The translations under genes and the position numbers were made by a program. From assembly GCF_036588685.1 (NCBI RefSeq), contig NC_086374.1, positions 42,718,001-42,782,000 on the forward strand: a stretch of DNA of 64,000 nucleotides. Reading direction: 5' to 3'. Shown here piece by piece: positions 4,784 to 50,212 of the stretch. The notes beneath the pieces were generated by a model that saw only the letters and a program-made list of their open reading frames with translations, was not told where the DNA came from and ran no database searches. Within the stretch, counting starts at the first letter, position 1, and the number at the start of each line of letters is the position of its first letter. The stretch comes from Mytilus trossulus. Lineage: Eukaryota.

Positions 4784-4838
4784 ATGGCCGCATATATGAT
4801 CGCAATAGTATTCATCATGTTTTCACAGACAAGCAATG
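4784..4838 (+). CDS. Gene B exon 1, signal peptide (MAAYMIAIVFIMFSQTSN), phase-1 donor
   Basis: ATG at 4784, hydrophobic core, donor AATG|gtaaga; phase matches the acceptor at 7965. Confidence 0.7.
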
Positions 4839-5129
4839 GTAAGAGAGCAATATTCTGGTTAAGAAAATAGGCGCTTGCTTCTTAATATGCATCCATCTTT
4901 GTTCTTTTGCTAGGAAAGTTTGTTGTATTGTCTACTTCCTATTTGTTTTCAATTTTGTCCTACTGCTTATGTCAACACAGTATCCTTATCTAGGAGTGTA
5001 CATTAGATTCGTCATTCACATAAATGTTTGGAAACAATGTCATGAAAACATTGAAATGACAAAACTGCCTAGTTTATAGGTCTGAATTTCTAATTCTTTT
5101 GGGTTGATATAAAAACGTTGATATAAAAC

Positions 5130-5845
5130 AAGAAGATGTCGAATGATTACTCATGATACACCTACCAAACAAATACCAAATGACGAAGATGTCAGAGACT
5201 ATATAGGATATCGCAATACCTTCAACATGGATCAAAACATACCGCATAACAAGCTATAAAAGACCTCGAAATGGCAAATGTAAAAAAAATTAAACGAGAA
5301 AACTAACGGCCTGATTAATGTATAATAAAATTAACGAAGAACAAATATGATATACAGCAACACACGGCAACCCCTGAATTACAGGTTTCTGACATATATA
5401 ATGTGACGGCGATCAACATGTTCGAAGGCGTTAGTCCTTCCAAGACCCAAGACAGTAGTGTAAGACACAGCATAAGAGTAAACTATACAAATCAGTTGAC
5501 AATGACTTAATTCATTAGATTGATACAAGACAAAAGAACAATTAACAACAACACCGACAGACGTATTAGGGAATTAATACATCCCTATGGAGAAAAAAAA
5601 ACACAATCTAAAGAGTAATAGCAACTCCTTACAGCTAGTTCAAAGCCAATATCCTAAAAACATATACCTAGGACTAAAATACCAATCTGTACAAATCCAA
5701 CATCCAATGGATTTAGTGAAAAAAAAAGTCATTAATAGTCAGAGAATAACACAAGACCTTACGCAATACCAAAATGTAGGTATCGACAGATTGCACACCA
5801 TAAGATGGTACCAAAGGAACATCGCCGATTCAAAAAAGGAAAATT
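5130..5845. repeat. Abundant interspersed repeat family (AAGAAGATGTGGTATGAxTGCCAATGAGACAACT...); other copies near 1-110, 15020-15260, 17255-17500, 35015-35190, 47480-47615, 52610-52720, 61635-62010
   Basis: Same motif series recurs at the listed positions in both orientations. Confidence 0.7.
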
Positions 5846-6373
5846 AAATATAAGGATAGAAAAATCGTCACTTTTTTGGTGTCAATCCATCTTTGGAATT
5901 TCCAAACTTAAATCGTACCTCCATTGCCATGGAAACTTTGGGAAAGTTTACCATTGAATCCTATGGGGAAAACTTTAAAGTAACATTTACTTTCTTAATT
6001 GGCAGACCGAACTTAGTAAAACGTCAATGCTATTTTGTCTTTCATGTCATATTTTGTTATCTTGGTAACAACAAAATTGTTCAAAATCAAAATGCTCCAA
6101 ACTTTAATAACTTCACACAAATGTTGACTAGCATATTCAGATATATATATGAAAATTAAAAGTGCTCCAAACTCACTTAAAATTATCAGAAATAGATGTT
6201 GTCATGCATATATGTGCATTTATTTTTCAAAATTATCAAAATGGCTGCCGCGTAGTGGCAATGTGCAAACTGTGGTGCCTGCAATGGCAATTCTTGAGTT
6301 TTTATATCCTTTTGTTCATACAGCTTTTCAACTCTTTCGGTTCTTACATCATTGCCCATCAAATATACGATTG

Positions 6374-6416
6374 AGCGTTCCTGATGAAGGCGAATCAAGA
6401 AAAGTTCCTCGGGCGC
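6374..6416 (+). ncRNA. Degenerate type I hammerhead ribozyme motif
   Basis: gcgttc-CTGATGA-agg cgaa tca a-GAAA-agttcc-TC-gggcgc: core boxes and stem I present, stems II and III imperfect. Confidence 0.5.
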
Positions 6417-7128
6417 ATGACATTTACAAAGTGTTGTATCCATTTTATTTCAGTATAAAACTAAACAGTTAGAATATATTACAATATAAAACAGTTAGAA
6501 TATATTACAATATAAAACCGTATGGGATAAGATAATTGAAATCATCACTTTACATTCAATGACTTTTCTATTAAAAAGTATAACTCCGAGTCGGAATATA
6601 AAAACCTTGCAGTAAGTATTTCCACGTCATGGAACAAACCTGTTTACTAAATATCTCTTACATGTTTTTGCATTATATGTTCCGAGGAAAGATTAATTAA
6701 GAATTGAATGCTTCTTTCCGCGTTTCATTCTAAAAATGTACGCACAGTCGACGCATTTACACCCCTATGAAGTTACAAAAAGAAGCATTTAATACTTATT
6801 ACATTTTTTAGCTAGGCTCATGAAAACACGAATTTTATCATTTTTTTTATTCAATTCACATCTGCACTTTATTGTGGGACCTCGTGTTATCATGAATGAT
6901 AAGTTTTATTGTGTAATGCAATTGCTTAAGGAATAACACGTGATGTGCAGATAGTCAATCAGAAATACGTATTATAATGAAACATACATATAATATAATT
7001 ATAAATATATATCTATATACTAAAAAATAGGAAGGGAAGTATATTTCAATGAGGCAATTGCCCAAAAATATAAAAGCTAACACTCATGGCCAGATGTACC
7101 AAAACTGGTCCTCAATAATAGTCTGTGT

Positions 7129-7916
7129 ACGGGGCGCCGAATGGGACTCTTGTGGTTTTGTACTCGAAATTCAATTTTTTATGGACAAAAGTGACTTTTG
7201 TTCAACAAACATGAGTTCAGTTTAACAAAATTTGTAGCATACTACAAAGTTAAAATTTTGTCATACAAAATTATCTTTCAGTGGACAAAAGTCACTTTTG
7301 TCATGAGAAAATTCATTTTTTTTTACCTTATTTGAAAATTAGGCGACAAAAGTCAATTTTGTATGCAAATTAGTTTAGTTTGGATTCTGTGAGACAAAAT
7401 CGACTTTTGTGAGACAAAATTGACTTTTGTGAGACAAAATTGACTTTTGTGAGACAAAATTGACTTTTGCGAGACAAAATTGACAAAATTGAATTTTGTC
7501 GTCACAAAATTGCGTTTTGTCGAGGCAAAATTGAGTTTTGTGAGACAAAACTGACTTAAGTGAGACAAGATTGTCTTTTGTGAGACAAAATTGACTGACA
7601 GAACTAAATTTTGTCCCACAAAACTAAATTTTGTCTCACAAAACTAAATTTTGTCTCACAGAAGTCACACAATTGACTTTTATGTTTTTATTTCCATATC
7701 GGGTAACAAAAGTCAATTTTGTATGCAAATAAGTTTACATTTGCATACGTTTTTGACAAAATTGACTTTTGTCATGACAAAAATAAATTTTGTCCTCACA
7801 AAATTGAAGTTCTCATAAAACAAGTCTGTATTATATAGTTTTGTAAGACAAAAATGATTTTGTTATGACAGAATTGAATTGTGTACAAAACCATAATTGT
7901 CTCATTCGGCGCCCTA
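7129..7916. mobile_element. MITE with TIRs (GGGGCGCCGAATGgGAC / GTCTCATTCGGCGCCC) and an internal 20-bp repeat array (GAGACAAAATTGACTTTTGT)
   Basis: Inverted termini at 7131 and ~7915; tandem quasi-palindromic units at 7390-7680; lies in gene B intron 1, ~50 bp from the acceptor. Confidence 0.8.
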
Positions 7917-7964
7917 TTCTGAAGTGTTTTATCTTACGATAATTGTTTTCCCCTTTTATTTTAG

Positions 7965-8958
7965 CTGCAACTATTACACCGACTATCGGAGAAATGGGGT
8001 CTGGTGACATAGATGACCAAAATACTTCAACAAAAATCGTCACTAATAAATATCATTCAACAGAACAACTTAAAGCCATTATTAACACATCAATTAAACC
8101 ACAGACGTTTTCTGGTCAGAATATTAACCATTCTATGGAAGATACTACTAGTGAGGAAAATAAGCTCTCATCATCATCAGCAACCACACCTAACTTATTT
8201 GTAGAAGAAACCACGTCTACCGTTACAACAAATGTAGAGACATCAGCTAACAATGGTATCAGCTCAACGCTCCAACCTTCGTCATCCACAACAAAACGGA
8301 GTTTTACTACTTCGCCAATTATAACATCGATTTTAACATCATTTAAAACACAGAGAACGACACAACATTTAACTACAGAATTACGCAATGAAACGGACGT
8401 AACGGAGAAAGAAACAACATATATTCACAGTACGACCGTAACGAAGAGACCAACAACTAATAGTCGCAGTGAAACGGAAGTAACGAAAAGACCGACAACT
8501 TATAGTCCCAGTACAACGGTAACAACGAAGAGACTGACAACATACACGCGAGGTAAAACAGACGTAACCAAGATACCGACAACTTATATTAGCGTGACGT
8601 CTTCTTCGACAGAACAATCTGCTATTGTTGAAAATGAAACCACAAAGTCCTTATATACAGACAATGCCATAACCGAAGAAACATCTTATCATACTGTAGA
8701 AAATGTTCATTCAACCGAAGCTAGTCTCCCAAGTAGTACGTTGGATGTTGTCAAATCAACAGTCACAACAATTAAACCACCAGATATTTCACAGACTGTT
8801 TCCTTTTCAAATATCACAACAGCAAAAACAAGCAATGTCAGCAAAAACAAAGAAACAGGAACAGAAAACGATACTGTACTTGATCATCTCGCTTATATAA
8901 TACCAAGCGCTTTTATTATACTATTGGCAGTTTTAATTAGTGCTGTATGCCTTAACAG
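7965..8958 (+). CDS. Gene B exon 2: Ser/Thr-rich mucin-like ectodomain with ~14-aa VTKRPTT repeats and a transmembrane helix (YIIPSAFIILLAVLISAVCL)
   Basis: Within ORF 7943..9028; acceptor ttttag|CTGCA (phase 1); donor AACAG|gtttgt (phase 2) just after the TM. Confidence 0.85.
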
Positions 8959-9577
8959 GTTTGTTATAATTAGTATAGTGTACAGACGACACCACTACTT
9001 CAAGAAAAAAATCAACTTGTACATTTAAATATATCATTACCAAAAGATAACCAAAGCAGGAATTAACTGATTACCACACATGTAATAAAGCAAAAACACC
9101 AAAAGTTAAAGTTATCTCTCACAAATAGAGGTGTCATATCAAATATACACCAATAACACGGCTTTTAATAAAATCTTTGTTGATGAGAATCAACTAATAT
9201 ATAGGATCATTATGGTACAATCAAAATTGTTTGACTTAGTGTAGCATTCAATCAATCAATCAATCAATCAACTATAATTACCACAAAAAAAACAAGCAAC
9301 AACGTTTAAATATTAAATATTATATATAAAAAGTTGTACACCAAAAAATCCCAAAGTTTATATCATTATCAAATATATAAGAAAAAAAAACCCGCTTAAT
9401 GACAAAAGTTACCAGCATCGCATGCAATTTTTTGCTCAATCTTACGGTGATATAAAGTAGACAAGTTCCATAAAATCTAACAATATTGAAGTCAGTGAAA
9501 TAAAAGAGGAACTTATAATGTTCTTATCAATTCAAATCGAACGTATTGATTCTTTCTGTTGTATCATTTTCCTTTTT

Positions 9578-9778
9578 GGGAGCTAACATTTGATTTTTAG
9601 GGGGAAAAGGATGAAATTTGGAAAAAAAAATCAGGACAGGAGTAATGAAAAAAGGCAGCACCGAAAAGAGGGAAAACAAATAAATAAAAAAATGCAGGAC
9701 AGCGATTATAACAAAAAAATATGCAGGACACAATTTTCCATCCTAACGCCCCCTTAAAATCAAATTGTAGCTCCCTTA
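9578..9778. mobile_element. Small MITE (TIR GGGAGCTAaCATTTGATTTT / AAAATCAAATTGTAGCTCCC)
   Basis: Inverted termini visible; in gene B intron 2. Confidence 0.6.
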
Positions 9779-9914
9779 TATTACCCGTTTAAATATTACA
9801 ACGATTACTGTTAGATTCAAGATATCTTATCCAGTATTTTATGTAGTAAAACACCATTAATGCAACCAAACAAAGTGTTTACATACGTATAGAACATTTT
9901 CACATTTGTTTTAG

Positions 9915-10779
9915 GTATAAAGGAAGGAAAAAGGCAGAGAACATAGACGGTGTTCAAAAACGTCCCAAAAATTCTTCCAATCCTGCTTTTATGAAAGAAA
10001 ATATGAACGCGTTGGCATACCAATTTCAATCTCGTGATTCAAAATTGCCGTCTGCTTTTAAAACAAAACTTGAAAACCCTGGAAATGGTTTTGAAGAAAT
10101 AGAATTGAGAGAAGAAAATCAAATTGCAGAACAAAATTCAGATAAAAATCAAACAACAGTAGAAATGGAATCAAATTTTAGCCCAATAGGTAAAGACAGA
10201 AGTTATTTCACAACCATAGTAGAAAATGAACAAAATTATGATACAGCTCACACTCCACCACTTCCGGGGAAAGGCCATAAGATTCAAAATGTTGCGCATG
10301 ACACATCAGCTTCCCATTACGATGTTCTTCCTCTAAGAGAAAGCTTACCAGTCAAAAAAAGAAGACAGAATTCAATAGACGAAATACCTGGGTTAACAAG
10401 AACAAACCTTTACAAAAACCCAGAATACGATGTTTTACCTCTGCGAACATTTGCACATAATCAATTACCGAGTGACTCCCGAGATAGAACAGTTTTAGAA
10501 ACAACAAAGCAAGATAATAACTTATTACATAGTGTTCAAGCAGGAAATGAAACAAAAAAGCCAATGGAAACTTTTAACTTCCCCGATGAAGTGTTCAGCG
10601 ACGATCTAAGTGCACCAGGCAGTAAAAGTGAAAGTGAAACTGAGCAAGACATTACAGAACAAGAAATGATTGGAAACAATGCCGTTGATCAATTGAAACG
10701 TCGTGAGCCAGCATCACGTGCACCCTCGTTCGTGGCACTACCGAGAGCAGCATCCGGATCGCTAAGAACAGCATTGTAA
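9915..10779 (+). CDS. Gene B exon 3: ~288-aa cytoplasmic tail (RYKGRKK stop-transfer, Tyr motifs, C-terminal RTAL). Full gene B is ~637 aa
   Basis: Acceptor ttttag|GTAT gives AG+G=Arg, in frame with ORF 9991..10779; 55+994+865=1914 nt. Confidence 0.85.
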
Positions 10780-13068: not shown

Positions 13069-13379
13069 TTACACTGCATGTCTGGATTTTGTGTCATATG
13101 ACAAACTGCCCTGTGATTTTCGTGGTACATAATCAACTTTTGTCTCCCAAATGTCGTTAAAAACTACTTTTTCTTGATCATCTTCGTTCTTGTTATTCCT
13201 TCGGATGATGCATACGATAAAGGCAGCCATCATTAGTAATATTCCTCCTAACATGGCGGGAACTAATGAAAAGGAAAAGGAATAAGAGAAATCTGAATTT
13301 TGTTGCACTGTCTTCATGCGATAGTTTGATGAAATTGTTGCATACAGAATTCTACCACAGCCAATCAATACTAAAACAC
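13069..13379 (-). CDS. Gene C exon 3 (end of TM3, TM4, C-terminal tail) of a claudin/PMP22-like four-TM protein (~219 aa)
   Basis: Acceptor ttacag|GTGTT (phase 1), in frame with ORF 13069..13368; FSFSLVPAMLGGILL TM4. Confidence 0.85.
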
Positions 13380-13809
13380 CTGTAAATAGATTTGTAGTAC
13401 AAATATCACTGATGTAAATAGTAACCTTAATTTTGATACTACAATGGTCTAAAGTTCACATTTTCAAATCGTGAATCCTCGAAAAACAGTTTAAACAAAA
13501 TAATGAACATTTTATACAACGACGTCAATGCGGGTCATTTGGTTTAACAAAAAAATCTAATTGATAATCAAGGTTTTCGTCACTCATTTGACAAACAAAC
13601 AAAAGATGAAGGAACAGAGCTAAATCCTAGTTTATTTCAAATCATTATTTAGTTCTGCATCTTTTCGTAGGGCCATTGTTGTTACATCTGACCAAATGGT
13701 ATCAGACAATATCGTGATTGCTTGTTAGTGTACAACGCTGTATGTTATTGATTGATGTAACAATTATTTATACCATTGGCAAACAGGAAGTTATTGCACC
13801 ACTGATGTC

Positions 13810-18877: not shown

Positions 18878-20701
18878 ATGCAGTTGTTCCTGATTTATAG
18901 CATATTATTTCTGGTGAATTTTCAGTATGAAAATGGACAAAGATGTGTCGGTAGATCATGCAACATCTTTTATGATATTTTTCCTACAAGTGTAATCTGT
19001 GATGTGACCAGTGAGGACCAATGGTGCATGGACAGTTTTCGTAAACTTTTGAACGATACAAAGAGTTCTTACTTAGGAGACGATCAATTTACATTGGAAA
19101 TAGAATGTCATTGTGGTGGAAATATAAGTATAAAGCAACCAATAAGATTACCGGGAATGACAGCATGAACCGTCAGGAACTGTTATATTATCGATTATTA
19201 TGATTATGATTTTTCACCAGCAGTTTTGTTGATCGAATCGGTACTGCAAAATTTGAAATTTACCAACTGCAAAATAGAGAACAGCTACTTGGTTTTTGTG
19301 AAACACATACAGAAAAATTTCAGAAAGTTACTGACATACGAGAAATATCAATATCCAACACTTTACGAACGTTCATTTTTCAAAATAGTTCTTTAAATTT
19401 TATTGAACAGCCAGAACGGTTCTCTATCGCAAACAAATCAATCGAAGATCTAGAGGAGTATTATAGAAATGAACTGAAACGGCATGAAAAATGTGCTCAT
19501 AATAATCTCGAGTATATTGAAATGTCATCTCTAGATAGAATCCCCGACGAAAGAAGCATTAACAAATTATTACAAAACGGCATATTTAACTCCTTTTATG
19601 TAATTAACTTGACTGATAATAATTAAGCACGGACTCCAAGAAGTTTGTTCACAAATTCTATGTACGAAACTTTTGATAGATTGGAGCAGATTGATCTTTC
19701 CAGGAACAAAATTGAGGACATAAGCTTAATTCACAAACCAATTACGTTCAAAAGTCGTCATCTATACGTTGACTTGTCAAAAAATAATATAAAAGAAATA
19801 TCAAATCAAGTTATGGCGAATTTAATAGTTTTTTTTATCGTAAGAAATAATGTTAATATAAGAGAAAACCCGCTTATATGTACATGCAACCAAACATTAT
19901 TGTATGCATTCATTGCTGTGAAATGACACGAAGTGGAGGCAATATACATATCTTAAATCAATGCAGTGTTTAGATCAAGAAAGCGAAAGAAACTTGAAAA
20001 ATATATCTGAATATTGATTCGAAAGAAATATGTAAGAAGACTGAAAGTTTAGTAGGTGCTAGGGAGGGAATATTTGAAAGGAATATATATTATTTTCTCG
20101 CATTTTCGCTTGTTCCTCTTGCCATTCTGATTGCGTGTCTACTTTTTAAATACAAATCTAGAATTGCACAACTGTATAGAGTAAAAACTTCCATTCAGTG
20201 TCATTGTCCTGATAACCCCAAAAATTACGACGCTTTTATTTCATACAGCTCGTCAGATGAACGATGGGTATATGATGTTTTGTTTAAGAGATTGCAATAT
20301 TTGTTACCAGATGCTAGTCTTTCTCTGCACCACACAGATTTCAAACCTGGTGCTTGTATAGCCGAAAATATCATCAACAGCATTGAGAACAGCAGATTTA
20401 CACTGTTAGTTCTGTCAAAAGTGAATGGTGCCAATTGGAATTTCAGAAGGCTTTTCACCAAACATTGAAACACCGACACCATTTACTTGTGTTGCTCATT
20501 GAAGACATTGACTTTAGTTTGTTAGACTGTGATCTTAGATTGTTCCTGCAAACTTATACTTATCTCAAATACTCCGACAAACTGTTCTGGCAAAAACTTA
20601 CAGGAACATTACAAGTTTCAACAAAAAGTAATACTAGAAGTCACTCACATAACCCTGTGTGTAAGCAACTTCTTCCATCAGACAATGAGTCATGTGTATA
20701 A
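18878..20701 (+). pseudogene. Intronless Toll-like receptor pseudogene (signal peptide, Cys-rich N-terminus, LRRs, LRRCT, TM, TIR)
   Basis: LEQIDLSRNKI, VDLSKNNI, NPLICTC, TM FLAFSLVPLAILIACLLF, TIR YDAFISYS...DFKPG...EWCQLEF...FWQKL. Stops at 19166, 19624 and 19924; frameshifts including ~20420. Confidence 0.9.
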
Positions 20702-26418: not shown

Positions 26419-27043
26419 TTAATCATAAGAAGTGACTTTTACTTCAAAAGTAGGATGACTGTTTATACTGGAATCAGTTTGTATATCACTATCATCTTCT
26501 ATAGAGATTGCATCATTTGTGGAAATGGTCTCCGTAGATTGACTATTGTATTGAGACATACTAGGGTCTGTACTCGTCTTATGTACTTCTAAATGTGATT
26601 TTATATTTAAATCATCAGTAAGGTCATTCAAACTTTTCGATTTAGACACTTTTCTTTTGAAATTGTCTTGAGAATTGGTATTTGTAAAGCTTCTTGATCT
26701 TCGCCGGCGTATTGTCTGCCACATGAAAGCCATAAGCTGAGATGGTCTATTCAAATATTGTGGTCGATCATCTACCCTGTCTCTTTTTGTATTTTTTTGG
26801 CGATTTGATCTGTTCGATTTTATTGATTTCATTGAACGGTTGCTAGATCTCCGCAATAAAGCACCAAAACTTAAATCTGTAAATAAACTATCACGTGGTT
26901 GGTTTATTTCAACAGGTAGATTTAGTCTGTCGTCGATTGGTTGCATATCGATATTGACAGAACTGCCTCCAGTACTGTTACCACTGGAAAAAGAAACCGG
27001 CACTTCATTGAGAATTTCCTGTTTGTAAGGTGTTGATCTGCAG
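26419..27043 (-). CDS. Gene D last exon: ~208-aa Ser/Arg/Asp-rich cytoplasmic tail
   Basis: Acceptor ttgcag|CTGCAG (phase 2), in frame with ORF 26419..27081; a second in-frame AG lies 6 nt downstream. Confidence 0.8.
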
Positions 27044-27319
27044 CTGCAATGATAATGAAAACAAATTTGATACATTTTCATTTACTGCACAGGGAAATTT
27101 ATGCACGTGAATTTCAAACGAGTTTATATATACGTAAAACTTAAGTAAAAATGCTGGTGTATTTCATGTGAATTTACCAAACAAATGATATTATTCTTGA
27201 TCTTAATTGAGTTTTGAGAATAACTTTACTTTCATGGGATTCACGTAAATCGCGGGCGAAGTCGTTTCATGCGCATTTCATGTTTAAGCTCGATTCAAAC
27301 TAAATTCATATGCATTTTA

Positions 27320-27665
27320 TGGTACCGTTAATTGTATTACTACCACTGGGTCGATACCTCTGCGAAGGTATCACCAGCCCAGTAGCCAGTACTTCGGTAC
27401 TGGCATGAAAATACGGATTTTTTTGTGATATTAAAATTTGCTGTTACAAATTATTAGAATTTATTATAGATTAAGGAATGTATCTCCCTCATGCAGAGCT
27501 CTGATTCCTTTCACGGATTTGGCTATACTTTTTGGACCTGTTGGATTATAGCTCTTCGTCTTTTATATAAGCTTTGGATTTCAAATATTTTGGCCACGAG
27601 CATCACTAAAGAGACATGTATTGTCGAAAGGCGCATCTGGTGCAAGAAAATTGGTACCGTTAATT
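27320..27665 (+). mobile_element. Retrozyme-like unit (332-bp period) with a mutated hammerhead at 27600-27643
   Basis: 14-bp direct repeat TGGTACCGTTAATT at 27320 and 27652; GCATCA-CTaAAGA-GAC atgtatt GTC-GAAA-ggcgca-TC-TGGTGC. Confidence 0.7.
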
Positions 27666-27779
27666 TTATTATGAGATATTCACGTGTCGTTTAAAATCTT
27701 AATTCTTGTAAATCATCGTGATTGAAATTGACATAGTTTATACTATATTCATATATTATCGGTTTTATTTTACTATTTC

Positions 27780-28035
27780 ATAGATTATAGTTGATAATCT
27801 CAACGAGATTGATTTTCTCGCTTGAACCTAGTACGGCGAAAGTGAGAAAACAGATTGAGTTGAGATGACCAATGAATACTGTGTAACGCTATTTTACCTA
27901 TGACGGCGTTGTCAATTTCACAAGCAACGCCACGTGCCCCTTAGTTTCTAGCAATAATTTTCATATCACTCGACTCAATGGAGAAAGGAAATTATCAGTC
28001 AGCAAGGAAAAAGGAAAATTTCGTAAAATAGTGAT
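27780..28035. mobile_element. Palindrome-plus-short-IR non-autonomous element (degenerate)
   Basis: atctcaac...ttttctcgctt / aagtgagaaaa...gttgagat arms; ctattttac / gtaaaatag IR. Confidence 0.5.
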
Positions 28036-28269
28036 TACCTATATTCCATTTTTACAGCTGCATATATCTTCACACCACAGTTATGAAGAAAAAGACATAT
28101 ATACGATTTCTTTTTTTAACAAATACGTTTCAAATTTTGAACTATTTGTGACCTTTTGAGTTAAAAAGAAAAAAAAACTGAAATCTTTGAATCTGGAATT
28201 CTAAAGCATACTGAGAAATTGACAAAAACTTACATAACAGATAAACACTATTACTCTACAATTACATAC

Positions 28270-28348
28270 CGTTTTATACAACAAACTAAAACGACAACTG
28301 TTAGTACTACGAACACAACTCCACCAAGTGATCCGCCAATAATACTAC
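28270..28348 (-). CDS. Gene D transmembrane exon (GSIIGGSLGGVVFVVLTVVVLVCCIKR)
   Basis: Acceptor ttttag|GTAGT (phase 1), donor AAACG|gtatgt (phase 2); 79 nt fits the frame. Confidence 0.85.
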
Positions 28349-29245
28349 CTAAAATGATTTGTAGTATTAGTATTGATTTTATTTAGAAAGTAATGTTGAT
28401 GATATTTTTACTTACATTGAAAAAGGGGGCCGTAAATACTAAGAGATGATTCAAAACCCCATAGGTCGAGATAATCAGACAATGCAGTGACAAAAAAGGA
28501 GGACGACGAAAAGACAAAATACTGCATCTAAAAGTCAACTCAGATAAATGAAAAGAAAACTCATAGATAGTTGCTCCAGGATTGTAAGCAACTCCTAATC
28601 AACTAGTGGCACATTTCGTGCTGCATATGGTAAGTACAAATTCGGAGATGTTTCATTCTGTCTTTAACTTTTCATCTTATTATTTCCACTTATTATAATG
28701 CCCTATTGAGTAGACAATATTTAATTATTTGATGTATTTACTTATATAGTAGATGGACAAAGCTAATCATTAATCTTTCTTTTTATATTTTTTCTACTTT
28801 TTCAGTCTGAGTAAAAATTACAACTACATTTTGTTCACTAGCAGTCATCATTTCAAAACAGGGGATTCCCCACGCTTACCAAGAAAATAGTGTCAAACAT
28901 TGTCACATATGGGTAAATATTACAAATAATTACGAACTTATAATTAATTCCTCTGATAAATTCTGAGACTTAAATTTCTTTTCATCAATTAAACTGTATA
29001 TGATATAATTCAACCATGTTAGATTTATCATGTTGCTAAATGTCACTTATTGGTAAGAGCATTAAAGATGAGATTTACGTAGATGTAACGCGCGTATGAC
29101 GTACTTTTTTTTATAAGTTTTGTACTTTTAAATAAATCTTACGTAAAAATCAACATAAACTAGACGGCACAACCATACATGTCATATATCTGTGGAAAAG
29201 TACGACTTTTAAACACAAAAAATCTGAAAAAGTGTGTTTCCTTAC

Positions 29246-29884
29246 CTATAGAATCTGCATTGTTGTTACCCTTTGGTCTATTTGTTTCATTGGTGGATGG
29301 TTCTATCTGAGAGTGCGAAGAAATGTCTGAAGACCAAATTTCTGTAGTAGATATAAGAATTGTCTTTGAAGAAGTTGATGTTTCTGGTGTTTTTGCCAGT
29401 GTTGATGATGGTAATGATGTTAATTCTGTTGTTACTGCTGCTAATGATGACGATGATGTTGAGGATGATGTTGGTGCGGACGACGATGAAGGCGACAACG
29501 ACTTCGATGATGATGGTGATGACGTCGATGTTGATGATGATTGTGATGATGACGATGAAGACGACAACGACTTGGATGATGATGGTGATGACGACGATGT
29601 TGCTGACGATTGTGATGACGACGATGTTGCTGACGATTGTGAGGACGACGATAAAGACGGCAACGACTTCGATGATGATGGTGATGACGTCGATGTTGAT
29701 GATGATGATGATTGAGAGGACGAAGACAAAATCGAAGACGTCGTCGTCAATGATGATGATGACGATGTTTCTGGATAATATACTAAAGAGGTAGTTTCCA
29801 TCGTATTCTTTACTGTCCACGAAAATGTCCTTGGTTCTGTAACAGTTGTAAGGGACTCATCAGGAGCAGTAACTGAAGCTTCGT
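29246..29884 (-). CDS. Gene D poly-Ser/Thr mucin-like ectodomain exon (639 nt, phase 1-1)
   Basis: Acceptor taacag|ACGAA, donor ATAG|gtaagg; within ORF 29160..29912. Confidence 0.85.
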
Positions 29885-30702
29885 CTGTTAAAAGAAGAAA
29901 GGTTTTAAACAAACATATTTATAACCGCTTATGCCTTGTATTTTATAATGCTAAAACTAAAACGGCACAACATGAATTTATTTTGAAAAATGTCTTTTTC
30001 CATAAACATCCCAATACCATAATAAAAAAAATGAGGTCACCGTTCACTTAAGCTCACAATCTGCCTTCGAAAGAAGAATGCATTTTTGTAAAGGTACTTT
30101 TTTTTATGTTGAACTGATAGGAGAAATAGTAGTAATATCAAAATAAAAAAATAAATAAATCACAGAAATCACTTAAATTTCACAACTGTTTAGTTAAAGT
30201 TCAGCTGATTTGAAAAAAAAAAAAAAATAATATAGGTCACAGATGAGTTAAAAAAGAATATGTTATCTTTAATGTCAACAAATGGTATTGTTGCACCAAA
30301 GGGAGATAATTTAGAGCATTTCCAATGGTATTAACATTTTAAAGTCAACTGGGGACAAAATGAATCGATATTCCGGGTTGATTTTTGTATCATATCATAA
30401 AGTAAAAACTAATAGTGTAATAAGTCAAATTTGTAATAAAAAAAATAAAATGTTAAAAGTTTTGCTGAAATTGTTGTAGTCTCGAGCCTCCATAAATTAA
30501 AAAATCGGGCATTTTGATAACATCACTTTCAGACCATTTTTTTTAACAAAGTATATAATATTTGTTCCAACAAGATTTTCAAATTGAAACTGTGCTCGAA
30601 TCGTTAATAATGCAGAAATGCCGGATGCCAATAGTTCACAACAGTATTTAGTTATGACTTTTACAAATATGTGTATTTAGGCATTTGCATGATAGTTATT
30701 AA

Positions 30703-31351
30703 AGCCTCGGTCACACCTTACCGGATAGCTCGAACGGACGCCTAACGGATAACTTTTTTTCAATCCGTTCAAGTCCGTTCTTATCCGTTAGGCGTCCGTC
30801 CATATCCGTTAGGCGTCCGTTAAGCGTCCGTTTTATCCGTTGACGTCCGTTCTGTCCGGTGGAAAATTTTGAGCATGTTCAAAACTTTGAACGGACGTCC
30901 AACGGATAAAATGTCCGTTGAACGTCCGTTAGGCATCCGTTATGCGTCCGTTTTGTACGGTACTCGTCCGTTTTGTATCCGTTACGTGTCCGTTATGCAT
31001 CCGTTATAGATCCGGTAGACTTATTCACCAAGAGACGTCTACCGGACGCCTAACGGATAAAACGGATGTTAAACGGACATTAACGGAAGGATAACGGTTA
31101 AAACGGATGTCTACCGGATGTAAAACGGACAAATGCCAATTGAAATTTCTCATGGTTTATTGCCTTAAATTTTTAGATGGTTTATTGCCTTTAATTTTCA
31201 GAATATTTTGTTCATCCGTTTTATCTATTCGCTTCCGTTGGGTGTCCGTTTAATCCGGTACTCGTCCGTTGGATGTACGTTCGACGTCCGTTCTGTCCTG
31301 TACGTCCGTTAGGCGTCCGTTCGAGCTATCCGGTAAGGTGTGACCGAGGCT
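30703..31351. mobile_element. PIF/Harbinger-type MITE (649 bp) with TAA TSD and internal TCCGTT/AACGGA repeats
   Basis: TAA|AGCCTCGGTCACACCTTACCGGATAGCTCGAACGGACGCCTAACGGA ... exact reverse complement |TAA. Confidence 0.9.
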
Positions 31352-34300
31352 TAAACTAGTAATGATACTACCGATGCATTTCGTTTGATTACAGTAAAAG
31401 AACAATGTAATACTTAGTATACGTAGATATAATCTCAAGACAAATTATTTTTGTGAACGAAACACCTTCAATGATTTTGCATCTTAATGCTGCATAACAA
31501 TAGGTATGCTTATGTCGCAAATATTTTCATCAATATTATTCGTGAATTACGTATCAAGTCAGATATATGCGAGTTGTTATCCATTCCTTTAATGAATTTG
31601 AGCGTTTTATTTTGCCATTTTATTTCGGACTTTCCGTTTTGAATTTTCCTCGTAGTTTGTTTTTCTGTTTGGTTATCTTACTTTTTAGTCAAAATAAAGT
31701 GTCTAATTCGCTGTCAACAGCAGCACTTTGCCGTATCCTTTCTATTCGCATACTTAACTATATCATCAAACATGAGAGATATATATGATGAAATCGGCAT
31801 TTTGAATCCGTAACTCCTCCTAAACAAGTAACTCAATATTTAGATAAATGAGTCCTTTTACTCTGCTAGATGTACGTTTACATAAGAAAATACCTGTACC
31901 AAGGCAGGAATATGACAGTTGTTTTCTACGGGTAAAAGGTTTGATGTGTTCGAACGTTGATTTTGCCGTTTGACAACGGACTTTCCCTTTTGAATATCCC
32001 TCGGAGTCCGATAGTTTATTTTACTTTTTAATTAATCCAATAGCATTAAATACCGGGTATGACGGTATGTGGTGTAAAACACGTATGTCAGTTCTGACGG
32101 GCTTTTAACCACGTAAATCGACTGTTTCTGTAGATATCAAAATGTTGGTTTAGTTTATTGATATCTTAATTTTGATAAAGACAAGAATACTATAAGATTG
32201 GTTGTGGTTCAACCTTTGGAAAATGTTCACATAAGTGTACAAAAAAACAGGCAAAAAAAAGAAAACTCGGTTTGATTTATACCATCATTGGACAAGGAAA
32301 GATAACTGAGATCTAATGAATTAACAACTATGTATTGGTTCTTTGGTCATATATCTAAATCTATAAACAACTTTCATACACGTGAGAGGTTAAGCTAGCT
32401 ATAAACCCACCGTTTTGTTCGACAAATTCATGTACAAAGTCAGAATGATACAATTGGTTCCGAGTCGTTCCGTTGATTGATGTAGTCGATCGTTTAGTTT
32501 TGTCAGGTTTTATGAACTTGCAACCTTTTCAAATTACATTGGAGTTCAGTGTTTCGTTAATTGATGTTTTTGTATATTTTCAACTTTAACTATTTCTGTT
32601 CTACTGACTAATGTTCTTGCAGCTCGTCAGCTGTCAGGGAAATCTTGATCGAGTATTTTGACGAAGATTGTGACAATAACGGTAATTGAAATGTATGGAG
32701 CTAAAAGATCTTCGAATCTCTTCGATAAATTACTATTCCTTATCGTCTATAAGAGGAAAACAACGGATCAACTGAATCACTGAACTACAACAAAGGCAAA
32801 ACAAAGGCAAATATACAGAGAAACAGACAGTAAATAACAACTTTCATATTAAAATTACTTTTTTATCTTCGCAATAGTCATGTTTGTTTCATGAACAACA
32901 GTGGAATACCGTAAAGTTATTGGTATTCCTATTGAATACGTACTATGCTCCTCTCATCACATGTGTGTTTGTTCGTTGTTATAAAGCAGTTTTTATACAA
33001 ATCATGAAAACCCGGCGAAACGCTTCTTGATATATTTTTCAATCATCTGCACATATGTAGACCCCATTTGCGCTCTACATGTTTCATATTTCATAATTAT
33101 ACAAATGATATGTATCGGCCTTTATAATCCATCTGTCTATATTCAATGATATGCTTGTTATAGATATATGTTAGAATTTTTCATATCAATATTTTTAACT
33201 AACATTAGGACAAATATGGCATAAAACTTACATTCGGACAAAGACGGCAACTGATATACATTGAGGACATAGATGACAAATTTCGTAAAATTCAAAAAAA
33301 AAAACTCTTATGATAAACAATGTAACACTCAAACAATTTTAAATTCATTTGAAAAAAAAAACAATGGTTAAATGACCTTTGTGTGGCTAATCCAAATTTT
33401 GAAGAAAGAAACGAAAATATTTTGAGGAACATTTTTTGAAAGATAATTGCGCCATTTGAAGCAATACAAATACATAGGCTCTAAAATACAATTACTAAGT
33501 ATTTGCTAACAGGAAAAATCTTATTGGTTCCAGTATTGTGTACTCTATTCAATGACAATTTAACACAGGAAATTTTCCTGAACTTTGCGTCAATTATGTT
33601 ATTATTAAGGAGGTACTAATCAAAACTGAAAACTATCAAAACATTTCCTTAGTGTCGCACATTGGTAAATCAATGGTTAATGGAAAATGAAGCAAACTAG
33701 TTTTTGGAGAATCATTAGTTTTTTTACAAACATATATACGATATAGATATAGGAAGATGTGATGTGAATGCAAATGAGACAACTCTCCATCCAAATGTAT
33801 GGATATGTATGGATATGTCTGGTTTATGGTTTTATTTAGAAGAGCCGTCAATGATATTTTAAATTTTTTTTATAAAAACAAAATACATGTACATTGTTTT
33901 AAGCTTGAAACTGGTCGCTTTTATAATTTTAACATATATTAAATGAAAGATCGTGTGCAATCTGTGGCGATTGAGTAATTGAAGATGAATATCGTTTTTT
34001 ATATTTTTATTTTTAAAAACACGAAGATATGCATCAAAGTTATATACATTTGTAAATACAATACTATTGGGGAAATCCTTCAGCTTTCAAACTTGTTCAG
34101 TTGTTATCAGTACAAAAAACTTAATTAGTTATGGAATGTTGTTGCCGAAAAGCTTTGCTGCTAGGCCGCTGTTATTCAATTGTATATCTATATAATTCCC
34201 TCCTATCTATTATTGTTATTGTTTGATGTATGTTCGTATTGAAATTGATGTATATTTTGTTATACTTTTATAAGCAGTATTGCTTTTTTTAAATAAAGTA

Positions 34301-45424: not shown

Positions 45425-46486
45425 TTATTCCGAAGAAGAATCTAATTTATACATTGAAACTGATTCTCCGTCATTATTTGAAACATACAAACACATGTCA
45501 TTTCGGTTGAAATGTACGCACAGCGGATTGTTTATCCCATGCTTTTTCGAGAGAATCACGTGTGATTTTGTTCCCTCGGAATTAATAACATGAATTTTGT
45601 TTTTACCAAACTCACTTGTAAAAACTTGTCCTTGATGATCAACCGATATCCCTCTAATACATTTCATTGTCAGATTAGAAAAGGAATATACCTCGTCGCC
45701 ATGTCTATTGAAGCACAAGACTTTATGCGACCAATATACAGCACAGTAAATATTACCATTGTCAGATGAACACAAATAAGCTTCGCCTGTAACATCAGAG
45801 ATAGTATTTTGCACAGCACCGTCTAAACTGATAATTGTTAACCCTTTTTCTAGACAATTTAAAACGAGGTTGTCATCGGTATAAGTGATTCCATGGCAAC
45901 TGTCTTCTACATTCAAATATCGGAACGTTTTTCTAGTCAGAATGTTTACTAGTGCCACAGATTTCTTTTCTTGTAGTGTTACAGCAATTTTGTCACTATT
46001 TATCACTGCTATTGCACAAGGTTTCCCACTTACATCAATGGCTTTATATATCTCTAAACTCTGATTATAAACATACAGCTTACAGTTGCAAAAGTCCGTC
46101 AAAACAACATTTCCATTTGGAAGCTCATCAATGCTACTTATCCAGGGTTTACTTTCGGAACATTTTATATCAAATGTTGTGTGATTGTCAAATTTAAGTC
46201 TTTCAAATCCATTATTTTCTGTTTCCTCAATTTCACTTTTTTCTGTTTTCTCGTTTTCACTTTTTTCTGTTTTCTCAATTTCACTTTTCTCTGTTTTCTC
46301 GTTTTCACTTTTTTCTGTTTTCTCAATTTCACTTTTTTCTGTTTTCTTGTTTTCTGTTTCAGTGTGTTTCTTCTTAGGAGAGCACTGTAAACTATAGTCA
46401 TTATCAGAACTTGTTTTGTTTCTTTTTATTGTTTTCTCAATTGTGTTTTCATTTTCTTTAGCAGGGAGTGAAACGTTGCTGAACAT
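45425..46486 (-). CDS. NHL/beta-propeller protein of the TRIM-like C-terminal type, with an N-terminal E/K-rich 8-aa repeat
   Basis: 353-aa ORF; blades such as GKPCAIAV, CHGITY, IRGISVDHQGQVF, NPLCVHFN; acceptor ttgtag at 46528 with the frame open to the ATG. Confidence 0.8.
   Translation of the reverse strand: MFSNVSLPAKENENTIEKTIKRNKTSSDNDYSLQCSPKKKHTETENKKTEKSEIEKTEKSENEKTEKSEIEKTEKSENEKTEKSEIEETENNGFERLKFDNHTTFDIKCSESKPWISSIDELPNGNVVLTDFCNCKLYVYNQSLEIYKAIDVSGKPCAIAVINSDKIAVTLQEKKSVALVNILTRKTFRYLNVEDSCHGITYTDDNLVLNCLEKGLTIISLDGAVQNTISDVTGEAYLCSSDNGNIYCAVYWSHKVLCFNRHGDEVYSFSNLTMKCIRGISVDHQGQVFTSEFGKNKIHVINSEGTKSHVILSKKHGINNPLCVHFNRNDMCLYVSNNDGESVSMYKLDSSSE
46215..46362 (-). repeat. Coding 24-bp tandem repeat (alternating ENEKTEKS / EIEKTEKS)
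   Basis: Visible in both DNA and protein. Confidence 0.9.
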
Positions 46487-47212
46487 TTGTTTAGTTGAAC
46501 TAGCAATGGCGTATTGCTGTAAAGAAATCTACAAAAAAATCATGAAAACATTAAACGTTAAATGTAATTAAATGTTACATACAATCAATATGTGTGTGGG
46601 TACTTTATTTATTAAAGTTCTTACTATGTTATAGACTCCTTTGTTAAATTTGAAAAGAAACTATTGTGTTTACACCAATCTATGTCTAATATATTGATTC
46701 AACCTGGTGTACATCTATTTGAGGTGACTTCATGTTGAACAGAAATAAACTACAGTCTACTCAACTCCATCGACACCTGAAACGCACTACCATCTATGGT
46801 TAAATGTCTGTCTAATCAGAAATAAAGTCATATGTAAATTCTGTTTGGCACCATTTTTGCTTTGTAAATGCCAATAAAACCCCAAAATTTGTAGATTGCT
46901 TCCTATATATATCAGAAATGAAATTCCCAAATTCCATGTGAACAAATTGTCAAACTGGAAATCAATGTAAAAGTCCGCACATTTCTTCATAAAATATTAA
47001 ATGCAGGATTGCCCATTGAAAATGGTCCCAGTCGCTATCACTGTATTATTTCAGACGGCTGACTTACGAGGAATAGAAGTCCCCCCTGTCTTATAGTTCT
47101 GAAGATCCAGTAGTAAAATATTATTGTTTATCAATATGTGACACTTACAGTTTCTATTATCAATCCCTTCCAAGATCCCAAGTATAAGAAATATAGAATA
47201 TATTGTACATAC

Positions 47213-47330: not shown

Positions 47331-47854
47331 TTTAAATATAACGTAATAGGTAATGGAAAATTGTCAATTTCGAGAGTAGATCACATGTGATAATAGCTCA
47401 ATCCAATAATCAATATTTCAACACAGTTCAGTTACAGTGGAATCTTTTTTTAATATACACATTGAGAGTTATTATACAAATAAGAAGATGTGGTACGATT
47501 GCGAATGGGACAACTCGCCACAAGAGACCTATTGACACAGATAATAACAATATATAGGTCACTGTACGTCCGTCAACAATGAGTTTTAACACCATGCTGC
47601 ATAGTTAGTTATAAAAAATTTCCGTTATGTTTGTTTGTTTAATGTTTTAATGTTTTATATAAATATTGTCTTTAAAAATATTTTTTTTATATAATATTTT
47701 TTTTTTTAATAAAAAAAGACAAAAACATAAAAGTATATGTAGTGAAATTACTAAGACTGATGATATAGGACAGTGTTTGTAAAAGTATACGTATAAGGGG
47801 TGTTTACCCTGAAACAACTTAAATATTTACTCGTGTGGCAGATTAAGAATGCGT

Positions 47855-50212
47855 TACTTTAGATGATGGAACTATATCTAACAATTTAGAAACTGTTTTA
47901 AGTAAATGGAAAAACAGTTTTCACAGTTTATTAAACCCAAATGTAAATGCAGATTATAACAAGGTTGATAATTGTATTCTTAAAGAAAATATTATTTGTA
48001 TTGATTTAGATAAGGAAATTACTATTGATGAGGTTCATAAAGTTGTAATGAATGCAAAAAATTGTAAAAGTGCAGGAATTGACCTTATTCAAGCTGAGTT
48101 TTGTAAAAATATCTCTATTATTTCTATTTTACATAAATTATTTAACTTATGTTTCAGTTCTGGTAATGTACCAAATATATGGAATAAGGGAATTATAACC
48201 CCAATACCAAAATGTTCTACATCAGATCCTAGAGACCCCTTATCTTATAGGGGCATAACTCTAGCTCCATTCACATACAAGATGTATTGTAGTATTTTAA
48301 ATGAAAGATTAGTCAAATGGTTAGATGAAAGGGAGATAATTAACGACGAGCAAAACGGTTTTATGAAAGGCAAAAGTACAATTGATCATATAAGCACTAT
48401 AACATCAATAATAGAAACCAGGAAAAAGTGTAAATTATCAACATATGTAGCTTTTATAGACTTTAAGAAAGCATATGACTCAATTAATAGAGTTTTTTTG
48501 TTCAACAAACTAGAAAATCTAGGTATAAGTTCAAAGTTTATGTATTCTTTAAAAGCTTTATACTGTAATGTAGAATGTAGTGTACGTATTAATGGTAATA
48601 TGACTGACTGGTTTAATGTTGATTCTGGATTGAAACAAGGTTGTGTTTTATCATCTATAATGTTTAATATATATATAAATAATTTGGTTGATGACATTAA
48701 TGCTTTGAATATTGGTATTAACATAGATGATGAAAAATTAGCTATATTGTTATATGCTGATGATGTTATTTTAATGGCAGAGAATGAAGAAGATCTACAA
48801 AAAATGTTGAATGTGCTTAATACATGGTGTCTCAATAATGAGCTGACAGTTAATATAAATAAATCTAAGATCATGCATTTTAGAAATCCAGCTGTTCTAC
48901 AAACTAAATGTATTTTTTCTATTGGTGGTAATAGTATAGAATGTGTAAAATGTTATCAATATTTAGGCTTATTACTTACTGAATATTTAGATTATCAGTT
49001 AATGGCTAAGGCAGTAGCGAAGTCAGCAAGTAGAGCATTAGGATTATTAATTGTAAAGAGTAAAATGCATGGTGGTTTCCAGCACAAAATTTTTTCTAAA
49101 CTGTATGATACAATGGTATGGTCAGTTATTAGTTATGGCGCAGGTATTTGGGGAACAAGAGACTTTTCCTGCATAAATGCAGTCCAAAACAGGGCCATGA
49201 GATTTTTCATGGGTGTTGGCAAATACACACCAAATGATGCCATAGCTGGTGATATGGGCTGGAAACCTCCATGCGTTAAACAATGGTCAAGTGTCTTGAG
49301 ACATTGGGCTAGGTGTTCCATAATGGACCCACACAGGATAAATTTTAAAATTTTTAAGTGGTCTATACGAAAGTGTAATACCAGAATTAAAAACTGGAGT
49401 TTTAGAGTTATAGAAATGTTAAAATTGTATAATTATGAGCAATATTGTAATTTTGAATCAAATGTATTAAACAAAAATTGTATTAAACAAATTGAGGAGG
49501 ATGTATTTGATAATTTTAAATCAAACTGGTGTACAAGAGTTGCTGCATATGCAGAGGGAAGTAAATTAAGAACTTACAAATTGTTTAAAAATAACTATTG
49601 TACTGAAAATTATTTGCAAAATATTATATCTTTAAAGAACAGAAGTTCATTTGCTAAATTTAGATGTGGGGTAGCTCCACTAAAACTAGAAACTGGAAGA
49701 TATGAAAAGAAAGAAGTCCATGAGAGGACATGTTTTAACTGTAGCTCTATTGTTGAAGATGAAATGCATGTAATTTTAAAATGCCCATTATATGTGGATC
49801 TAAGACAAATCATGATACATGAAGCTTTACATTTTAATGAACATTTTAACCTGTTATCAGATAATGAAAAATTTATATTTTTATTTAGTAATGACAATGT
49901 TGCTGCTATAGTTGCCAAAACCTGCAACAGCATTTTATTAAGAAGAAATAGTATTCTATTTCACTAGTTTTTAAAGAAACAAATGTTTTAATATCATTTA
50001 GTAAAAATGTATATTGTGTCAGAATTTTTAATTCTAAATGTGTAAAAATATGTTTATATGTATATAGTATATCTTAAAAGTCTCTCATAAATCTTTTTAA
50101 GATTGGTACATGCAATGCAAATGTTTTAATGTTTTAAATCTATGTATGTGAATCTCATTTTATGTTTGTATGTGGTGAGACTATAATAAAATATTGAATC
50201 TGAATCTGAATC
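47855..50212 (+). mobile_element. 5'-truncated non-LTR retrotransposon (RTEX/L2-like), young
   Basis: Uninterrupted RT ORF, AATAAA and (GAATCT)n tail, candidate TSD TGCGT at 47850 and 50213. Confidence 0.9.
48048..49967 (+). CDS. LINE ORF2 fragment: reverse transcriptase plus C-terminal CCHC finger (endonuclease lost by truncation)
   Basis: YRGITL, EQNGF, FIDFKKAYDS, GLKQGCVLS, LLYADD, YLG, CFNC...EDEMHVILKCPLY. Confidence 0.92.
   Translation: MNAKNCKSAGIDLIQAEFCKNISIISILHKLFNLCFSSGNVPNIWNKGIITPIPKCSTSDPRDPLSYRGITLAPFTYKMYCSILNERLVKWLDEREIINDEQNGFMKGKSTIDHISTITSIIETRKKCKLSTYVAFIDFKKAYDSINRVFLFNKLENLGISSKFMYSLKALYCNVECSVRINGNMTDWFNVDSGLKQGCVLSSIMFNIYINNLVDDINALNIGINIDDEKLAILLYADDVILMAENEEDLQKMLNVLNTWCLNNELTVNINKSKIMHFRNPAVLQTKCIFSIGGNSIECVKCYQYLGLLLTEYLDYQLMAKAVAKSASRALGLLIVKSKMHGGFQHKIFSKLYDTMVWSVISYGAGIWGTRDFSCINAVQNRAMRFFMGVGKYTPNDAIAGDMGWKPPCVKQWSSVLRHWARCSIMDPHRINFKIFKWSIRKCNTRIKNWSFRVIEMLKLYNYEQYCNFESNVLNKNCIKQIEEDVFDNFKSNWCTRVAAYAEGSKLRTYKLFKNNYCTENYLQNIISLKNRSSFAKFRCGVAPLKLETGRYEKKEVHERTCFNCSSIVEDEMHVILKCPLYVDLRQIMIHEALHFNEHFNLLSDNEKFIFLFSNDNVAAIVAKTCNSILLRRNSILFH

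Follow-up and report, generated by a model that had tools for sequence, protein, structure and literature searches.

An uncharacterised mussel membrane protein with a mucin-type stalk and conserved docking-type motifs in its cytoplasmic tail

A three-exon gene located in a 64,000-nucleotide stretch of the Mytilus trossulus genome (hereafter, the window) belongs to a real and conserved gene family, unstudied so far and known from a restricted range, in which known parts are put together in an unusual combination. Its product has a mucin-type stalk, one transmembrane helix and a long cytoplasmic tail, and a set of short motifs of this tail is conserved in three well-separated lineages. It is very probable that the protein is a non-catalytic receptor or adaptor and that the conserved motifs are functional docking sites. 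The more specific explanation preferred here, held tentatively, is that of a non-catalytic proteoglycan/adaptor likely coupling the cell surface to actin and endocytosis.

Results

Gene structure and splicing

The gene spans positions 4784-10779 (+) and reads as 637 codons for a 637-aa protein, with no internal stop (Table 1). Exon 1 ends in a phase-1 GT donor (GTAAGA). When tblastn and an ungapped scan were run with residues 1-19 of the ortholog P0002/P0001, it gave 74% identity and a score of 69, the next best score being 28. Exon 2 is 66% identical to residues 19-329 of P0002. The transmembrane exon is joined in frame to the tail exon through a phase-2 GT..AG intron, and the GT-AG ends are canonical throughout.

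Table 1. Positions in the window of the exons and main features of the gene and its protein
Feature	Positions	Strand	Remarks
Coding exon 1: start codon and likely signal peptide	4784..4838	+	18 codons plus 1 base
Coding exon 2: ectodomain and transmembrane helix	7965..8958	+	AG acceptor, GT donor, in-frame join
GSGDID, Ser-Gly in acidic context, Ser at residue 31	7997..8014	+	Invariant in 5/5 full-length sequences
Mucin-type stalk, Ser/Thr-rich, without Cys	8015..8887	+	Composition and column counts
Single transmembrane helix, closing in conserved Cys (CL[Y/N]R)	8888..8953	+	Kyte-Doolittle 19-residue peak 2.82
Coding exon 3: 287-aa cytoplasmic tail and stop	9915..10779	+	Stop codon at 10777-10779
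Membrane-proximal block (N/T)PAFM..N...A.Q..SRDS	9979..10041	+	Conservation; predicted short helix
PP[L/I]PxK, class II SH3-ligand-type	10255..10272	+	7/7 rows; PPLPGK from 10255
Tyrosine motif 1, HYDxLPxRESLP	10312..10350	+	10/13 positions invariant; SHYDVL from 10312, YDVLPLR from 10318
YKN (YxN)	10411..10419	+	3/7 rows, Mytilus-type only; YKN from 10411
Tyrosine motif 2, NPEYDVLPL[R/K]TF: NPxY, YxxL and WIRS-type overlap	10417..10452	+	11/12 invariant; NPEY from 10417, YDVLPLR from 10426
WIRS-type L-x-T-F	10441-10452	+	Within tyrosine motif 2
C-terminal 25-residue block ending in class I PDZ-type RTAL	10702..10776	+	21/25 invariant; RTAL codons 10765-10776, directly before the stop

The first-pass annotation of this DNA, which had read the tail as a cassette of signalling motifs, made that reading depend on exon 3 being spliced to the transmembrane exon. 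Such splicing is supported by relatives whose entire coding sequence fits on contigs of 2.0-2.5 kb. In four Logan records, the whole 617-aa ortholog is encoded on contigs of 2,036-2,092 bases, and the distant full-length proteins P0013 and P0029 are found on contigs of 2,452 and 2,110 bases, respectively. As exon 2 through exon 3 alone takes 2,815 bases in the window, the short contigs of the relatives are most simply interpreted as spliced transcripts. Moreover, L002, a disrupted genomic copy belonging to a distant lineage and one of 168 pattern matches, has a splice acceptor at the same position and in the same phase, just past the transmembrane segment. Splicing at the predicted M. trossulus junctions is supported through these relatives.

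Ectodomain and transmembrane helix

The protein begins with a likely signal peptide, followed by an ectodomain of 309 residues, a single hydrophobic helix that closes in Cys and a tail of 287 residues, a layout common to the five full-length sequences, which represent three lineages. The ectodomain contains 39% Ser plus Thr, eight N-glycosylation sequons and neither Cys nor Trp; in the full-length sequences, it measures 249-309 residues, with 33-42% Ser plus Thr and no Cys in 5/5. Concerning its conservation, 26 of 310 columns are invariant in the alignment of these five sequences, and six of them make up GSGDID, the only conserved island, with its Ser at residue 31 in every case, while the rest of the ectodomain is barely alignable. 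A run of six invariant columns was obtained in only 2 of 20,000 column shuffles. The earlier claim that there is only a mucin stalk outside was right as to the Ser/Thr-rich, Cys-free stalk, but it overlooked the invariant GSGDID. Xylosyltransferase XT1 is described as preferring a Gly-flanked Ser with acidic neighbours, and glycosaminoglycan attachment as having no predictive consensus (PMC13038410). Ser31 is a likely glycosaminoglycan attachment site, because the Gly-flanked Ser and the acidic neighbours of GSGDID match the XT1 preference.

The sequence CL[YN]R at the end of the helix is present in 5/5 full-length sequences, and its Cys is a possible palmitoylation site by analogy with palmitoylated adaptors. 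Within the stalk, at about 8390-8590 (+) of the window, there is a degenerate, T.VTKRPTTY-like repeat of about 14-15 residues, which varies in number and sequence among the Mytilus-type proteins and is missing from the distant ones.

Tail motifs and chance expectation

Every tail motif listed in the first-pass annotation was found where it had been placed (Table 1, plus NYDTA at 10234). Shuffling the 287-aa tail 20,000 times produced a repeated 7-mer twice, so the YDVLPLR repeat is beyond chance. The two copies agree in 17 of 21 bases, all four differences are synonymous and the flanks are unalignable; the silent-only differences and the unrelated flanks fit selection on the peptide rather than recent DNA duplication. 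A recent tandem duplication at the DNA level was rejected also because both copies are present in all three lineages. The frequencies of the individual motifs in 20,000 tail shuffles were 0.27 for WIRS, 0.22 for ITIM, 0.16 for PxxPxK/R, 0.039 for NPxY and 0.022 for a class I PDZ end. ITIM, NPxY, PxxPxK, WIRS and PDZ motifs occurred jointly in 0 of 20,000 shuffles, this being a set picked after looking. Since single motifs are common by chance, their meaning had to rest on conservation.

Conservation of the tail

The tail alignment comprised seven rows, and invariance was counted over six of them (window, P0002, P0003, P0013, P0009 and P0029), P0008 being kept outside the count as its first 30 residues are missing. 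Near-duplicates (P0001, P0004-P0007 and P0010) were not included, nor were sequences judged partial, redundant or degraded (P0011, P0012, P0014-P0028 and P0030-P0054). The tree displays three well-separated lineages, and the conservation counts rest on only three independent lineages. Altogether, 71 of 291 tail columns are invariant. The check proposed in advance, namely that the motifs should appear as conserved islands in a divergent tail, gave 23/37 invariant columns for the named positions versus 48/254 elsewhere (Fisher p 1.5e-7, although columns are not independent); the observed value was reached in 1 of 290 circular shifts. The motif reading thus passed the test that had been set for it.

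Only two of the seven tail tyrosines are invariant, both of them within YDxLP and separated by 33-36 residues. The NPxY and SH3-type PxxP motifs, the latter as PP[LI]PxK, were kept in 7/7 rows, as was the C-terminal x-T-x-L, which reads RTAL in all of them; P0015 and P0026 end in RTEL, which still satisfies the pattern. The ITIM assignment held only in part, as copy 1 of the repeat fits the consensus in 6/7 rows and copy 2 in 0/7, due to a Pro at -2 in 7/7 rows. The YKN proposed to bind Grb2 is indeed present, but only in the three Mytilus-type rows, being missing from all four distant ones; a Grb2 site was discarded because YKN is not conserved in either distant lineage. NYDTA is present too, but with 0/5 invariant positions, and was discarded as a functional motif. 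An ITAM reading was also rejected because the 33-36 residue spacing of the tyrosines does not suit it, ITAM tyrosines being about 10-12 residues apart.

Straight after the second tyrosine motif, all seven rows contain L-[R/K]-T-F, overlooked by the first-pass annotation. It varies solely at x, where the WIRS consensus Phi-x-T/S-F, given for ligands of the WAVE regulatory complex, leaves the residue free (PMC8209697, PMC10411975). A second WIRS candidate of the tail, METF, was rejected with 0/4 invariant positions and serves as an internal control. Other conserved elements are PAFM, invariant in the six rows covering it, SRDS (7/7), a second NPxF word (4/6 covering rows) and the C-terminal 25 residues, the longest conserved block, which contains two RxxS words and is longer than a PDZ ligand requires. 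The membrane-proximal block with PAFM and SRDS and the C-terminal block had likewise escaped the first-pass annotation. Among the fragments, the Asn of NPxY is missing in P0012 and P0036, as is the YDVL of copy 2 in P0039; some of these three look like decayed copies.

Relatives, copy number and similarity searches

In the tail, Mytilus californianus 'uncharacterized protein LOC127728300' and M. coruscus CAC5410996.1 are about 80% identical to the window protein, and two distant lineages are 36-45% identical. Further homologs amounted to six proteins with 33-41% identity out of 668 candidates. A phmmer search of 1.84 billion representatives at E<=0.001 yielded 10 matches, namely P0002, P0010 and eight short fragments resembling the P0007/P0008 lineage, and a profile search for longer proteins matched 2 of 7,993 scored, both already known, which is weak as negative evidence. 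No further family was reached by either the exhaustive phmmer or the profile search, a result equally weak as negative evidence.

In protein searches of the own genome, this locus alone was found, an extra match at E=8.75 being rejected as a tandem repeat. In one distant lineage (L002:563-1444 and P0035-P0042), the tail exon exists in many copies that are broken or fragmentary, versus one copy in the genome of the window: the L002 tail exon carries frameshifts and stops, fragments of the lineage run into other frames and the P0008 cluster has 31 members. These copies could reflect local amplification and decay of exon 3.

The earlier description of an uncharacterised, non-catalytic single-pass protein is upheld by Pfam, where neither the tail nor exon 2 had any match at E<=0.1 and four homologs gave sub-threshold hits only; the Syndecan family was not matched by these four at E<=10. 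A PDB profile search returned 12 sequences (best E 0.085), all of them colicin E7 nuclease chains, and was taken as chance. AlphaFold, run on the tail with the 7-row alignment, gave a mean pLDDT of 48, a pTM of 0.13 and no confident fold, with a low-confidence helix at tail residues 23-37, in the membrane-proximal block. The tail is likely disordered, as agrees with the low pLDDT, but the 7-row alignment is too shallow to count as proof. Language-model look-alikes scored 0.83-0.89, all below 0.9 and hence leads only: vaccinia A36, syndecan-domain proteins, opalin, SCIMP, LIME1, EVI2B, UL132 and TMEM108. Literature searches gave no paper for the ortholog identifiers and the motifs YDVLPLR and NPEYDVL, with subscription journals and supplements (e.g., mussel proteomics tables) outside their scope, nor for Mytilus combined with ITIM, cytoplasmic tail and transmembrane.

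Discussion

Proposed mechanism

According to the preferred proteoglycan/adaptor explanation, a xylosyltransferase would prime Ser31, and the stalk, likely O-glycosylated, would hold the chain outward, where it would bind matrix or soluble ligands as a co-receptor. The likely disordered tail would be a phosphotyrosine-switched scaffold. Upon clustering, a cytoplasmic tyrosine kinase would phosphorylate both YDxLP sites; Crk/Nck-type SH2/SH3 adaptors would bind these sites and PPxPxK, and L[RK]TF would bind the WAVE regulatory complex, leading to Arp2/3 actin assembly. YxxPhi is an AP-2/AP-mu sorting signal, and unphosphorylated NPEY/YDVL would constitute an internalisation signal for PTB/FERM proteins and AP-2, one tyrosine toggling between signalling and uptake. 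Most PTB domains are reported to favour unphosphorylated NPxY (PMC3507883). Finally, the C-terminal TxL would anchor the protein to a PDZ scaffold.

Concerning the actin branch, a WIRS reading of LxTF is favoured because it is kept in 7/7 rows and varies at x alone, while METF is unconserved, and also because the tail shows no confident fold and a WIRS has to sit in unstructured sequence (PMC10411975). The surface binding WIRS on the WAVE complex is described as composite, formed by Sra1 and Abi2 (PMC8209697). On the other side, a WIRS-like word occurred in 27% of shuffled tails, the WIRS of HSV-1 gE bound the complex in pull-downs but is reported without function in cells (PMC8209697), and LxTF could be conserved merely as the flank of the tyrosine motif. 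As to the Nck step, the motif in print is YDxV (PMC3507883), whereas the +3 residue in the tail is always Leu.

Vaccinia A36 and TMEM108/retrolinkin are functional analogues, not homologs. Vaccinia A36, the top look-alike of the tail (0.89, a lead only), signals to actin via Nck and Grb2 (PMC9333988). Like nephrin and EPEC Tir, which also recruit Nck, it has paired YDxx motifs in a membrane-anchored tail (PMC9333988, PMC3507883); these proteins differ from the mussel one in having YDxV instead of YDxL and a spacing of about 20 instead of 33-36, and they share no homology with it. TMEM108/retrolinkin, a weak feature look-alike (0.84), recruits WAVE for endocytosis and binds CYFIP directly, 'WIRS' being absent from the text of the source (PMC5170866).

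A bolder form of the proteoglycan reading, possible but doubtful, is that of a new co-receptor family, so far known only from mussels and further relatives: a transmembrane proteoglycan independent of syndecans, with its single N-terminal glycosaminoglycan chain wired to an NPEYDVLPLxTF phospho-switch in a long adaptor tail. The 12 residues of this sequence would unite a ligand of PTB domains, a tyrosine motif for endocytosis or SH2 binding and a ligand of the WAVE complex, deciding between uptake and actin protrusion. New classes of linear motif would be represented by the twin YDxLPx[RK] and by the C-terminal block of 25 residues.

Alternative explanations

Phosphotyrosine signalling and actin nucleation would be unnecessary if the protein were a recycling sialomucin or proteoglycan, in which the two YDxL and NPEY acted as sorting signals alone, recognised by the mu subunit of AP-2/AP-1 and by PTB/FERM adaptors, with PDZ-dependent recycling. 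Both invariant tyrosines do fit YxxPhi, NPxY is present in 7/7 rows with a second NPxF in 4/6, and the preference of most PTB domains for the unphosphorylated form (PMC3507883) points the same way. Yet Asp+1, Pro+4 and the basic +6 residue are kept in both copies, which exceeds the needs of YxxPhi, and PPxPxK and LxTF are invariant too. This alternative is considered unlikely.

Rather unlikely also is a podocalyxin-like, apical or anti-adhesive protein of the glycocalyx, anchored through its PDZ end and its C-terminal block, with the tyrosine motifs binding other partners. The mucin stalk and the class I PDZ end resemble those of the CD34 family, which end in DTEL/DTHL (PMC10220851), and no conserved segment is longer than the C-terminal block, with its 21/25 invariant positions. 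Similarly to podocalyxin and endoglycan, the mussel protein is of type I, sialomucin-like and provided with N-glycan sequons. What it lacks is the cysteine-bonded globular domain that this family has between mucin and membrane (PMC10220851). In addition, its tail is far longer, and the conservation of the twin YDxLP, NPxY and WIRS-type motifs found there would be left unexplained.

The near-constant spacing of 33-36 residues between two conserved YxxL, together with the fit of copy 1 to ITIM in 6/7 rows, might suggest an inhibitory receptor, with the bisphosphorylated pair serving the tandem SH2 domains of SHP2/SHP1, or binding SHIP or Csk; SHP2 activators are described as carrying two motifs on a flexible linker (PMC10231330). 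It seems improbable when it is considered that copy 2 has Pro at -2 in 7/7 rows, that ITIM words appeared in 22% of shuffles and that there is no Ig or lectin domain. Besides, Asp at +1 is invariant, and SHP SH2 domains disfavour this residue. The ectodomain of CED-1/Draper/MEGF10 is of the EMI/NIM plus EGF-like type. A CED-1/Draper-like engulfment receptor, using NPxY for CED-6 and YxxL for Syk/Shark, both present and conserved, is highly improbable: the ectodomain has no EMI/EGF or other Cys-containing domain (0 Cys, no Pfam match), NPxY and YxxL use one tyrosine and the 33-36 spacing is far from that of an ITAM.

Comparison with known membrane proteins

For each family tested (syndecan, CD34 family, TRAPs and CED-1), one defining feature is missed. 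Syndecans have several Ser-Gly sites and a short cytoplasmic domain of about 30 residues with C1/C2 regions, ending in EFYA, a class II PDZ ligand. The mussel protein is like them in its signal peptide, N-terminal acidic Ser-Gly, Cys-free Ser/Thr spacer, single transmembrane helix and PDZ-type end, and in the proposed matrix-to-cytoskeleton link. In contrast, it has one conserved Ser-Gly site and a 287-aa tail without C1/C2 or EFYA, which ends in the class I RTAL, and there is no Syndecan Pfam match. With the TRAPs (PAG1/Cbp, LAT, SCIMP and LIME1), it shares a non-catalytic long tail with tyrosine motifs, a proline-rich site and a juxtamembrane Cys, which in TRAPs is palmitoylated, and with PAG a C-terminal PDZ ligand, VTRL in PAG (PMC4861716). 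Against this likeness, TRAPs have few extracellular residues (PMC4861716) and the protein described here about 300 (249-309), its conserved tyrosines are only two and sequence similarity is absent. By analogy, the protein may be said to work as a combination of an ectodomain of the syndecan type with a tail of the PAG/LAT type. The WIRS receptors PCDH10, SYG-1, Robo and DCC are likewise single-pass proteins with Phi-x-T-F in a likely unstructured tail (PMC10411975); unlike them, the mussel protein has no folded adhesion domains and carries the WIRS-type word directly after an NPxY/YxxL tyrosine.

Mucin-stalk membrane proteins with disordered tails escape domain searches, and the molluscan ones usually stay 'uncharacterized', as this gene has. 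Comparison of deep lineages pinpoints residues that can be tested: Ser31, the two tyrosines, the Thr-Phe pair and the C-terminal end. The proteoglycan reading, if true, would provide an invertebrate example of a transmembrane proteoglycan not belonging to the syndecans, with a compact NPxY-YxxL-WIRS switch. As the gene is lineage-restricted and its parts are known ones, no general principle is overturned.

Other features of the window

A second gene of the same overall plan, with mucin, transmembrane and tail exons, lies at 26419-29918 (-). Its Ser-rich mucin exon (about 29250-29885) is accompanied by a transmembrane exon near 28270-28352, whose product ends in VCC, and by a tail exon at 26419-27081 that encodes a basic, Ser-rich sequence with several RRxS-type words; the gene had no Pfam match and was not matched by the tail searches. 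Upstream of it, a MITE-like element was recognised by eye at about 30700-31412; it measures about 700 bases, its terminal inverted repeats are long and it also contains short internal repeats. An open reading frame at 13069-13455 (-) encodes two hydrophobic segments plus a short tail and may represent the final exon of a multi-pass membrane protein (Pfam not significant). A beta-propeller/NHL-like exon occupies 45425-46528 (-), with a short KTEKSE repeat before it and sub-threshold Pfam hits only. The open reading frame at 19998-20468 (+) encodes a hydrophobic stretch and then a partial TIR domain of the Toll-like receptor type (Pfam TIR, E 2.6e-6), within which the frame stops early. The 706-codon open frame at 47847-49967 (+) contains a reverse transcriptase domain (RVT_1, E 1.1e-38) and is likely a non-LTR retroelement. 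Finally, a single-frame CCDC90-like (MCUR1/CCDC90B-type) open reading frame with a Thr/Ser-rich repeat insert is found at 57223-58353 (+) (Pfam E 2.2e-44).
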